DNA of 30,844 bases from IMG/VR virus record IMGVR_UViG_3300017963_000593, positions 1 through 30,844 of that record, one strand, 5' to 3'. Positions within the stretch are counted from its first letter, which is position 1, and every line of letters begins with the position of its first letter. Shown here piece after piece: positions 27,812-30,844 of the stretch. The DNA comes from a virus (taxonomy: Duplodnaviria > Caudoviricetes). The notes beneath the pieces were generated by a model. The model saw nothing but the letters and a program-made list of their open reading frames with translations. It searched no databases and was not told the DNA's origin. A program made the position numbers and the translations under genes.

Positions 27812-28031
27812 CTTGCTCCTCATCTTTATTGTATCTGATGTGATCCTCTATGAAGTCATACACTAACTGCATATCCATCTTAGCTGCTGCACAGTACATC
27901 ACTAGCTTCAAGCCTTCCTCTGTGAGTAACCCACGGGCATGTGCATCCATGTGAAACTTAAATGTTGCACTACCATCTTCGTGTTCTTCTACGGTCTCGA
28001 CACCAATGATACCTGCGTCTTTATTCATCAT
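27804..28031 (-). CDS. hypothetical protein
   Basis: Acidic 75-aa ORF with EHEDGSAT motif; AGGAG RBS before ATG 28031/28028. Confidence 0.7.
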   Translation of the reverse strand: MMNKDAGIIGVETVEEHEDGSATFKFHMDAHARGLLTEEGLKLVMYCAAAKMDMQLVYDFIEDHIRYNKDEEQDE

Positions 28032-28686
28032 TGTTCTCCTCGTACCCAAACTTATACTCTGTCAAGCCATCTGTCAATGCTGCCCATGATATAGGAAACA
28101 GCTTACGCATTCTGTCACTGATTTGTGTAGCAACTTCTCTTGTCTCCGCTTGTGTATCAGAAGCACAACGCAGGTTACACATATCAGCAAAGGCATCAAG
28201 GCTACCTGACCAGTACCACTCAGTCATCATCGACTGTGGTAGGACCATACGTGCTTGCTCTGGGCAGACGCCTTCATCTAATAACTGACTATACATAAAG
28301 AGTGAATCAAGTTGAAGATTACAGGCGTTTGAGTTTGTCTTAACTTCACCCTCACTTCCTTGCTTCTTATCTTTAGCACGTCCTCTCCATGTCTTTGGTT
28401 CGTAAAACTCAGGCTCTTCATCCACATACCTACGGCTGATCTCGTTCCAGCGTAGGAACTTATGTTTCACAAGTTGACGTGCCACAAAGATAGGAGCCTT
28501 AACGTGGAAGCTGGCAAAGCAATGACCAAAGGGAGACATGTGTTTGTGCTCTGCCAGATACCAGATTAGTTTCTCATCTTTGGCTGTTGTATATGTGTTA
28601 CTGGACTTCTTGCCGAAGGACACTCTTGCAGCATTAACGACAGTAATATCACTGCCCATGTAATCCATCAGGGTTGCTTTAATCAT
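28021..28686 (-). CDS. thyX: flavin-dependent thymidylate synthase
   Basis: VVNAARVSF, HKHMSPF, PIFVARQLVKH...NEISRRYV, EQARMVLP and AQ.E-like motifs. Confidence 0.93.
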   Translation of the reverse strand: MIKATLMDYMGSDITVVNAARVSFGKKSSNTYTTAKDEKLIWYLAEHKHMSPFGHCFASFHVKAPIFVARQLVKHKFLRWNEISRRYVDEEPEFYEPKTWRGRAKDKKQGSEGEVKTNSNACNLQLDSLFMYSQLLDEGVCPEQARMVLPQSMMTEWYWSGSLDAFADMCNLRCASDTQAETREVATQISDRMRKLFPISWAALTDGLTEYKFGYEENNDE

Positions 28687-28814
28687 TCTATACTGTCTTT
28701 ACCTTTGTGTTTTTCTTTACGTACTGGCTTAGGTTTCTTCTTGTCAGGCACAACCCTAGGCTTGTACTTGGGTTGCCTCAAGTCCCTAGCCATTGGGTTG
28801 CGCCTGTTGTTCAT
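28683..28814 (-). CDS. 43-aa basic protein resembling ribosome-rescue factor ArfA
   Basis: MNNRRNPMARDLRQPKYKPRVVPDKKKPKPVRKEKHKGKDSIE*; starts 1 nt after the ssb stop and overlaps thyX by ATGA. The ORF is well supported; the function is inference. Confidence 0.6.
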   Translation of the reverse strand: MNNRRNPMARDLRQPKYKPRVVPDKKKPKPVRKEKHKGKDSIE

Positions 28815-28815
28815 C

Positions 28816-29298
28816 TTACCAACGATCTTCCATCTCTAGTTCTTTGTAAGGTACGTGCTCAATGATACCTACCTTCTCAAGACGGACAGAGGCAGTTGAC
28901 CCCTTGCCGTAGATAGAAATCTTGACCTTGGCTTTAGTGCCGTTGCCAAGTGCACCGTCTTCGATGTAGTCCCAAGGTGTATTTGTTGTACCCTTGGTGA
29001 CAGATGGTGCTCCACCGAAGTCATCAATACCTGATGGGTGTACATTAGGACGCTTGAGTTTCATACCCTTACGTCCACCTGCTGCATCGAAGGGCTTGAT
29101 CATCTTGTTACCCATTGACTCCTCAGGGAAACCTAGCTCAACCATCTTGTTAATCTCTTCGTCATCCTTAGGAACGAAGACAGTATTGAACTGGCCTGAG
29201 GTGCGTTCATGGTACTCAGAGTCATCCATGTTGTCTGTGTGCAGACGGGCATAGTAGAGTTCACCCTCGAATACACCGTACTTAGTTTTAGAAGCCAT
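28816..29298 (-). CDS. single-stranded DNA-binding protein (T7 gp2.5-like)
   Basis: 160 aa, LGNGTKAKV.I..Y...RLEKV.I OB-fold pattern, short acidic tail ending in an aromatic residue, strong AAGGAG RBS, own promoter. Confidence 0.75.
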   Translation of the reverse strand: MASKTKYGVFEGELYYARLHTDNMDDSEYHERTSGQFNTVFVPKDDEEINKMVELGFPEESMGNKMIKPFDAAGGRKGMKLKRPNVHPSGIDDFGGAPSVTKGTTNTPWDYIEDGALGNGTKAKVKISIYGKGSTASVRLEKVGIIEHVPYKELEMEDRW

Positions 29299-29330: not shown

Positions 29331-29359
29331 ATCATATACGTTATTACCTGTATTGTCAA
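29331..29359 (-). promoter_or_regulatory. sigma70-type promoter for ssb and downstream genes
   Basis: Minus strand TTGACA (29359-29354), 17-nt spacer, TATGAT (29336-29331); intergenic with an AT-rich upstream region. Confidence 0.8.
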
Positions 29360-29403: not shown

Positions 29404-30435
29404 TCAATGTGTATCTCTCCAAGATTTACCTATGTCAGTTGACCCAGCTAGAGGACAGACCATGTTGAAGTTCTTACCTGCATCAACGATAGCTTGACGT
29501 TGTATCTCACCTAGTAGTTCAGCATCCTTGTATGGTCCTGTCACTTCTGTCTGCCACTCATCGTGAGGCCAAGTGACTAGCTTGAAGTTAATCCATTGAC
29601 GTTTAGCTTTGTATGTCCAGTCAAGTGCTGCGTGTTTCATGATCACAGCCTCACCATTCTGTAGCATACCTGCCAAGGTCTTGTGCTCAGATGGTACTGG
29701 CACCTTGCGTCCATCCAACCCAATGAAGTACCCTCGCTTTGCTATGTGAGGTATGATCTTCTTCTTGAGGTTAGCTAACCCTTGGATAGACTCCATGAAG
29801 TTATCGACTGCTTGTGTTGCCTCCTTGTTTGATACGTTAAGAATCTGACTGATCTTGCCTGTACCTGCACCTAGCAGAAAGGCATAGATGAAAGTCTTAG
29901 CCATGTCTCTTGTTACATGTGACATACCTAGAGCCTTACGGTTGAGGTTGTGTATGTCAGTCTCGTCCTCCTTCTTACCTGACACGATAGCGTTAACATA
30001 CTCCTCTGAGTTCATCAGGTGAGCTAGCACCCGTAGCTGTATGCCCTCAGCGTCTGTGCCTACCAGCCAGCTATCCTCAGGCACGGTCCATAGTGCTCTG
30101 AACTGACCGTCATACTTAGCCTTCACCTCCTCTACTGCTGACTTAGGTGTGCCATGAAACTCAGCAGGGATGTTAGCTTGGTTGGGTGCTCTGTGAGCCA
30201 TGCGTCCTGTCCATGCACCAATGCCCATGAACTGCCCATGAATACGAGAATCGTCACCACAGTGGCCCAGCCACTCCACCAGTGAGGAACGTCTACCCTC
30301 AAGGGTCAACCACTCAGTTAAACGTTTGGCTCCTGTAGGGGCTGTCTCAGGCAGTGTGCTAAGGTTAGTCTCAGATAGAGTCCACCCGTACTTAGCAAAC
30401 TTAGAGCCTCTATCTTCGGTTCTGTTCTCTGTCAT
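29404..30435 (-). CDS. polA: family A DNA polymerase, C-terminal catalytic part
   Basis: TGRMAH..PN.ANIP, motif A DAEGIQLR, motif B RDMAKTFIYAFLLG, motif C HDE. Frame open to 30480; ATG 30435 has AAAGGA 10 nt upstream. Confidence 0.9.
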   Translation of the reverse strand: MTENRTEDRGSKFAKYGWTLSETNLSTLPETAPTGAKRLTEWLTLEGRRSSLVEWLGHCGDDSRIHGQFMGIGAWTGRMAHRAPNQANIPAEFHGTPKSAVEEVKAKYDGQFRALWTVPEDSWLVGTDAEGIQLRVLAHLMNSEEYVNAIVSGKKEDETDIHNLNRKALGMSHVTRDMAKTFIYAFLLGAGTGKISQILNVSNKEATQAVDNFMESIQGLANLKKKIIPHIAKRGYFIGLDGRKVPVPSEHKTLAGMLQNGEAVIMKHAALDWTYKAKRQWINFKLVTWPHDEWQTEVTGPYKDAELLGEIQRQAIVDAGKNFNMVCPLAGSTDIGKSWRDTH

Positions 30436-30844
30436 ACTCAATGTGTCCTTTGGTTTTGTCCACTGGTTTCCAACCTGCATCCCATAGTCTTTCGATACGC
30501 ATCTTAGGTGACGATGGTTTGAACTTGACCCAATCCATACAGATAAGCTGGGCTGGGAATGTATCGTAACTGATCTTGACCTTAGGGTATTTCTTTATAG
30601 CATCTTTGACAACCTTTGTCAACTCCCCATCTGACTTTTTCCTGTACAAAATACGATTGACTTCTTCTAGTTGGGGTGGGAAGTCCTCTTGGAAACCATC
30701 CTCTAGTTCTGCCATACGCAGTTCAATCTCATCTAGCAGATGCTCTGCCTTCTCCTTGTCGAAGAAGAAACCATTGTTGTGCATCTCCTCACATAGAATC
30801 TGAATGTCGTGCTCCACCTTGATAGCTTCTTGTTGTGTCTGATC
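30410..30844 (-). CDS. polA: family A DNA polymerase, N-terminal part (thumb region; partial, runs off the window)
   Basis: EH......EM..NGFFFD and FKPSS..RIERLWDAGWKP resemble T7 gp5 FNPSS...AGWVP; frame open to the window end; stops at TAG 30412-30410. Confidence 0.85.
   Translation of the reverse strand, partial: DQTQQEAIKVEHDIQILCEEMHNNGFFFDKEKAEHLLDEIELRMAELEDGFQEDFPPQLEEVNRILYRKKSDGELTKVVKDAIKKYPKVKISYDTFPAQLICMDWVKFKPSSPKMRIERLWDAGWKPVDKTKGHIEYDREQNRR

Follow-up and report, generated by a model that had tools for sequence, protein, structure and literature searches.

The window analysed here is the whole 30,844-nucleotide stretch of DNA, from a marine phage, and the features discussed below all lie on its minus strand:

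28021..28686, minus strand: thyX (PF02511), the downstream neighbour of ORF43.
28683..28686, minus strand: ATGA overlap between the ORF43 stop and the thyX start, read from the sequence and suggestive of translational coupling.
28683..28814, minus strand: ORF43, encoding a 43-aa basic protein of Pfam family DUF7230 that is a distant ArfA relative, supported by its frame, the Pfam match, selection and a survey of starts.
28707..28799, minus strand: conserved core of ORF43, N6-H36, one residue shorter than the E. coli ArfA segment N14-H45 to which it aligns.
28816..29298, minus strand: 160-aa gene upstream of ORF43, whose product shares 71% identity with hypothetical proteins from the cobaviruses CRP-5 and ICBM2.
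29331..29359, minus strand: sigma-70-type promoter-like site, TTGACA-17-TATGAT, matching the consensus at 11/12 positions, a consensus match only.

ORF43 is a 43-codon ATG..TGA frame at 28683-28814 whose product contains 16 lysine or arginine and 5 aspartate or glutamate residues, and both the frame and the sequence given in a preliminary description of this DNA were reproduced. Across 51 distinct 31-codon cores, drawn from 68 of 80 related viral loci and compared with the window, pN/pS was 0.166 in the frame of ORF43; four alternative frames gave 1.4-3.4, and the antisense frame whose third positions coincide with those of ORF43 gave 0.22. The ORF43 frame is under purifying selection and is a real, previously unannotated gene. 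Some gene callers place its start so as to give a 36-aa product, but we favour the 43-aa start because all 55 distinct relatives checked, those with sequence upstream, have an in-frame start 2-10 codons 5' of the invariant NP. Contigs from metatranscriptomes spanned ORF43 wholly in two of four runs, partly in one and not at all in one, a count made without a silent-stretch control.

The preliminary description placed ORF43 as translationally coupled between ssb and thyX. On the thyX side this claim is supported by the PF02511 match and the ATGA overlap. On the upstream side a gap of 1 nt separates the ORF43 ATG from the stop of the 160-aa gene, so that the two are adjacent and do not overlap, and the ssb label was not confirmed. 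The 160-aa gene, which is possibly an SSB, had no match in Pfam, PHROG or the PDB, and its single-sequence structure model reached a pLDDT of 38. Its product (28816-29298, minus strand) has an acidic, aromatic C-terminal end. The promoter-like site lies upstream of the 160-aa gene, ORF43 and thyX alike, though the scan that found this 1 site would be expected to find 1.6 at the looser 9-of-12 threshold. The association with thyX was borne out by a synteny survey of 80 related viral loci, 66 of which have a thyX homologue downstream in the flanking sequence retrieved, and five of which have the very same upstream neighbour. The best thyX matches were to cobaviruses and other roseobacter phages, and these matches, along with the identity of the upstream gene to CRP-5 and ICBM2 proteins, suggest that the host is likely of roseobacter type, in keeping with the alphaproteobacterial host proposed earlier. 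Because the cultured cobaviruses CRP-5 and ICBM2 hold unrelated genes in the corresponding slot, ORF43 is an accessory gene; a scan of five stretches from cultured cobaviruses, none a whole genome, turned up no family member. Further upstream, DNA polymerase A (29404-30844, minus strand) apparently comes as two ORFs that overlap (30410-end and 29404-30480), an arrangement also annotated in CRP-5.

The ORF43 protein narrowly exceeded the Pfam cut-off for DUF7230 (27.3 vs 27 bits, E 3.9e-6), and 32 of the 35 rows of our alignment A4 matched that family at E<=10. DUF7230 (PF23876; PHROGs 1359 and 20887) is to our knowledge a family with no assigned function, and a literature search that left most subscription journals outside its scope returned no paper on it. 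Its members resemble ORF43 in being short and basic, with NPxAK... and a KHKG end; the ORF43 clade represents a P-K-Y form, while the members of T4, KVP40 and a bacterial locus discussed below (L282) represent a shorter F-N form. A profile of the ORF43 clade retrieved 497 proteins at E<=0.01, and a broader profile free of KGKGS retrieved 909 representatives at 50% identity from 1.84 billion proteins searched. ORF43 is one more member of a widespread family. KH followed the core in only 40 of 135 new family representatives, among which the tail after the core varied widely. In three proteins (P0198, P0204 and P0177), DUF7230-like cores were joined to other phage modules.

Members above the DUF7230 cut-off included KVP40 gp286, KaAlpha gp306 and one Vibrio megaplasmid gene, and the KaAlpha protein matched 1113 phage records at E<=1, mostly T4-like. 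In phage T4 itself (NC_000866.4, 161580-161699, minus strand; L307:381-500, minus strand), we found a 39-codon DUF7230 gene scoring 44.9 bits between arn.1 and arn, with GAGG upstream and an end that overlaps the arn start. This gene is absent from the RefSeq annotation, and similar ORFs are common in T4-like phages. We had considered arn.1 as the T4 member, but annotated arn.1 does not match DUF7230 and the member is a separate, unannotated frame. The arn transcript of T2 has been described as five genes (bioRxiv 10.64898/2026.06.19.733364). The ESM Atlas gave DUF7230 at 0.98 and a cluster with 16% ArfA at only 0.82, which is at most a lead.

The preliminary description identified ORF43 as resembling the ribosome-rescue factor ArfA. 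Its by-eye alignment was recovered in the same register by BLASTP against E. coli ArfA (13/39, pairwise E 4e-4), though this is weak alone. The ORF43 protein had no match to PF03889 (ArfA) at E<=10 in Pfam and no ArfA match in NCBIfam, the PDB or the phage collection, of which a tblastn miss may be explained by the low-complexity filter. For comparison, we assembled an ArfA set of 35 loci from 37 matches in 401 Pseudomonadota genomes and took from it 33 cores picked by the KG[KR]GS motif; as sequence sets were chosen by motif, columns within those motifs are invariant by construction. An HMM of the 33 ArfA cores scored ORF43 at 4.5 bits, which 11 of 2000 shuffles also reached, and direct hhalign probabilities were 3.6% to E. 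coli ArfA and 33.5% and 45.9% to 21 ArfA sequences. In the reverse comparison, an HMM built from 104 cores of the ORF43 clade gave 22 of the 33 ArfA cores a score higher than the 99th percentile of 1527 natural basic decoys, the top decoy being itself an ArfA that had passed the filter, and 19 of 33 a score higher than that of 1650 shuffles. No shuffle among 2000 reached the score of ORF43 against three related HMMs.

A firmer link ran through a group of gp30-type phage proteins, relatives of pelagiphage HTVC027P gp30, to which the ORF43 clade aligned with an hhalign probability of 96.1% and whose profile in turn matched the 21 ArfA sequences at 97.0%. All 14 aligned gp30-type proteins matched PF03889, with the first row at 27.7 bits against a cut-off of 25.5, and in the PDB their profile retrieved six ArfA chains at E 3-8e-5 and nothing else below 0.8. 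The KGKGS-free profile likewise retrieved, at E 3e-8 among 1.84 billion proteins, one protein (P0256) that passes the Pfam ArfA model at 35.5 bits, the only one to do so of 135 new representatives scanned. When searched against 151 genomes of one family (that of G219), the gp30-type profile found one weak, stop-containing match. Profile comparison thus establishes common ancestry of the ORF43 clade and ArfA by a transitive link only, the direct link being weak, and by sequence ORF43 is a variant akin to ArfA, not an ArfA member. Of the earlier identification, distant kinship through intermediates therefore survives, and the name does not, as ORF43 falls in DUF7230 and lacks a Pfam ArfA match.

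This kinship might instead be convergent or mosaic, with only the KGKGS-bearing bridge proteins related to ArfA and the ORF43 clade sharing a separate rRNA-binding motif such as the N-terminus of uS14. The weak direct scores would fit such an origin, as would a 39-column tree in which ArfA fell among KGKGS-type phage rows on a branch 2.9 long, an alignment too short to give direction. The KGKGS-free profile also failed to find ArfA in the PDB at E<=10, and its top match there was uS14, but at E 0.36 over 13 residues that match is not significant. Furthermore, the two homology links cover the same segment and overlap on the same residues, and the clade keeps the R..KH of ArfA that the bridge lacks; the bridge proteins keep KGKGS without KH, and the clade does the reverse. 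KGKGS itself varies among close gp30 relatives, with 26 cores having it and 13 not. We consider convergence very improbable.

Common ancestry makes it possible to ask which parts of ArfA the clade has kept. In E. coli ArfA (YhdL; PF03889; PDB 5MDV, 5U4I, 5H5U and 5MGP), residues 31-48 fill the mRNA channel, P23 touches A1492/A1493 and residues 27-30 add a strand to RF2, and RF2 is opened by L19/L24/F25, A18 and the N-terminal minidomain (PMC5378476, PMC8012679). The alignment pairs ORF43 P15 with P23, Y17 with F25, R10 with A18, D11 with L19, K16 with L24, and K35-H36 with K44-H45. ORF43 shares with ArfA N14, P23, the aromatic residue at 25, the pattern of strand 27-30 and a basic tail with R..KH at nearly equal spacing: the clade has proline at position 23 in 93% of cores and tyrosine at 25 in 100%, the distance from N to KH is 29 in 96 of 102 clade cores against 30 in all 18 ArfA that have KH, and the 18 residues matching the channel segment include 10 basic residues in ORF43 and 9 in E. 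coli ArfA. The conservation of L..P.Y and R..KH anticipated by the preliminary description was confirmed, with R..KH present in 102 of 104 cores.

What is missing is concentrated elsewhere. KG[KR]GS occurs in none of the 104 clade cores, as against all 33 motif-picked ArfA cores, and it is invariant in our alignment A3. The earlier remark that the KGKGS loop is not conserved was correct but incomplete, as the losses extend to the N-terminal minidomain, to A18 and to two of three RF2-activating residues: the clade has lysine or arginine at position 18 in 95% of cores, aspartate or glutamate at 19 in 97% and lysine at 24 in 100%, and only 5 residues precede the equivalent of N14 in ORF43 (2-10 across relatives), compared with 13 in ArfA. 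The clade keeps the predicted binding features and not the E. coli activation surface.

We suggest that ORF43 likely functions at the ribosome, and our preferred reading, to which we assign a probability of about 0.5, is that its product would bind host 70S ribosomes stalled on stop-less mRNA and promote release with a host release factor. In this model the basic half at the C-terminus, with R..KH at its end, would enter the empty mRNA channel along the path taken by ArfA 31-48, and the P-K-Y segment with the strand that follows would occupy the decoding centre and offer RF2 a docking site, in the manner of ArfA P23, F25 and 27-30. RF2 would have to be opened through contacts other than those of E. 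coli, since the clade has lost the N-terminal minidomain, A18, L19 and L24. Likely made with the replication operon and independently of tmRNA load, the protein could keep ribosomes free during host mRNA decay. Ribosome binding, RF2 docking and a benefit to the phage are steps that we infer from the conserved residues. No arfA gene was detected among 2376 alphaproteobacterial genomes (PMC11633108, Table 1), which we count in favour of rescue; the same source lists ArfB in 2022 of the 2376 and tmRNA in nearly all. Since most alphaproteobacteria have ArfB and nearly all have tmRNA, and the hosts of T4-like phages have ArfA, such a factor need not fill a gap in the host. Also counting against rescue are the accessory standing of ORF43 and the scarcity of KH among the new family representatives (40 of 135).

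The same pattern of residues suggests a second, rather unlikely reading, in which the protein would occupy the channel and A site without activating a release factor and would exclude tmRNA-SmpB or ArfB, or park idle ribosomes, to the advantage of the phage. What the clade has lost is the RF2 switch (A18, L19, L24 and the N-terminal minidomain) and what it has kept are the residues by which ArfA binds the ribosome (P23, the basic tail and KH), and ArfA(A18T) offers a precedent, as it binds and recruits RF2 but gives no release (PMC8012679). However, loss of the activation residues does not exclude rescue. Q19/R24 and a short N-terminus are found as well in one ArfA of our set that passes Pfam (L273, 53.4 bits), and BrfA of B. 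subtilis, whose KH motif lies in the mRNA channel, switches RF2 on through an N-terminus that does not resemble that of ArfA (PMC8012679). BrfA, likened here by its description, differs from ORF43 in being made from non-stop mRNA.

Regulation also separates ORF43 from bacterial ArfA. As the preliminary description stated, ORF43 has its own stop and no hydrophobic tail; the stop falls 7 residues after KH, and there is no internal terminator and no degron-like end. The clade shares this arrangement: a median of 7.5 residues follows KH, a terminator-like site falls inside none of 50 distinct clade genes compared with 8 of 35 ArfA under the same simple scan, and AA/LA-type ends occur in 0 of 50 against 14 of 35. 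The 70 nt that follow the core folded with a median energy of -8.0 in the clade and -25.8 in ArfA. On its sequence, then, ORF43 is devoid of the internal hairpin and the non-stop or degron switch, and this, together with the probable coupling to thyX, suggests that it is likely expressed constitutively with its operon. Many bacterial ArfA frames end in -AA (L265, L266, L271, L273, L274, L276 and L279-L281), ends that presumably resemble an ssrA-type degron.

Bacterial relatives of ORF43 also bear on whether rescue or blocking is the better reading. A bacterial DUF7230 gene (L282:1480-1710, plus strand, G178:C1) lies between Fic and Mrr genes and carries within its ORF, directly behind KH, a terminator-like hairpin, followed by a hydrophobic tail, which is the non-stop layout of ArfA and BrfA expected of a back-up rescue factor; the convergent Mrr gene ends about 70 nt short of this hairpin, which could also act for Mrr. 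This was the only such layout among 105 DUF7230-type genes scanned; the 41 gp30-type genes, the 12 bacterial VVPDK-type genes and the one further gene showed none. Among 81 genomes (G178 and relatives), one further member exceeded the cut-off, without this layout. A metagenome search for similar terminator-bearing genes returned two loci: L300, which runs antisense to a long ORF and was rejected as chance, and L301, a near copy. The VVPDK-type relatives (L283 and L289-L299), of which 8 of 12 exceed the DUF7230 cut-off, have acidic tails and their own stop. In 12 of 61 related bacterial genomes they lie amid housekeeping genes, so a harmless or useful product fits better than an inhibitor of translation. 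Several of the VVPDK-type genes adjoin rfbC/rfbD-like genes.

It is also conceivable, though unlikely, that ORF43 encodes a small basic nucleic-acid-binding module employed elsewhere, for instance on the DNA or RNA of the phage in replication or in the virion, whose kinship to ArfA is real but whose function has drifted. ORF43 lies in a DNA-metabolism operon near thyX (66 of 80 loci), some relatives are joined to other basic phage modules (P0198, P0204 and the N-terminal extension of gp30-type proteins), and the variable tail after the core would suit such a module. Pelagiphage HTVC027P gp30 adjoins the small terminase gene and is listed as Late, with no more than 66 raw fragments per sample in the published table (PMC12753301). 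Against this, the invariant columns are those of the ArfA decoding-centre segment at fixed spacing, a likeness beyond charge that none of 2000 shuffles reproduced.

Rescue by ORF43 would have consequences beyond this locus. Phages from marine podoviruses to T4 would carry their own ribosome-rescue factor, a common family would gain a function, and release factors would have a minimal activation route without the surface thought essential in E. coli ArfA. Blocking would instead mean that the phage inhibits non-stop rescue, against which antibiotics are being sought, and under either reading the T4 member allows the family to be tested cheaply in E. coli. A broader proposal, which we offer tentatively and think somewhat more apt to fail than to hold, is that the proteins of DUF7230, a very large phage family with 909 clusters at 50% identity in this branch alone, may all be ribosome factors of the ArfA type, the T4 product included. 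They would recycle non-stop ribosomes while lacking the surface through which E. coli ArfA activates RF2, and bacterial ArfA would perhaps be one domesticated, tmRNA-regulated offshoot.

Phage genes annotated as ArfA are already in print. Both HTVC027P gp30 (PMC12753301) and Citromicrobium phage RXM g10 (PMC8953757) were so called from sequence only, and both, like ORF43, are phage-borne with alphaproteobacterial hosts, the likeness of RXM g10 being that of its published annotation. Our literature search, with most subscription journals outside its scope, found no functional test of a phage ArfA. For phage proteins on host ribosomes there is precedent in PhiKZ014 and other ribosome-binding proteins of jumbo phages; PhiKZ014 binds the 50S subunit, and ArfA goes unmentioned in that paper (PMC10914614). 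HTVC027P gp30 matches the ORF43 clade at an hhalign probability of 94.6% but differs from ORF43 in having KGRGS, an N-terminal extension and no KH, and at 20.2 bits it falls below the Pfam ArfA cut-off. Its relatives (L087-L166) have in common a WDG.SR N-terminal module, and their tails switch between KGKGS and K.Y.RK among close kin.
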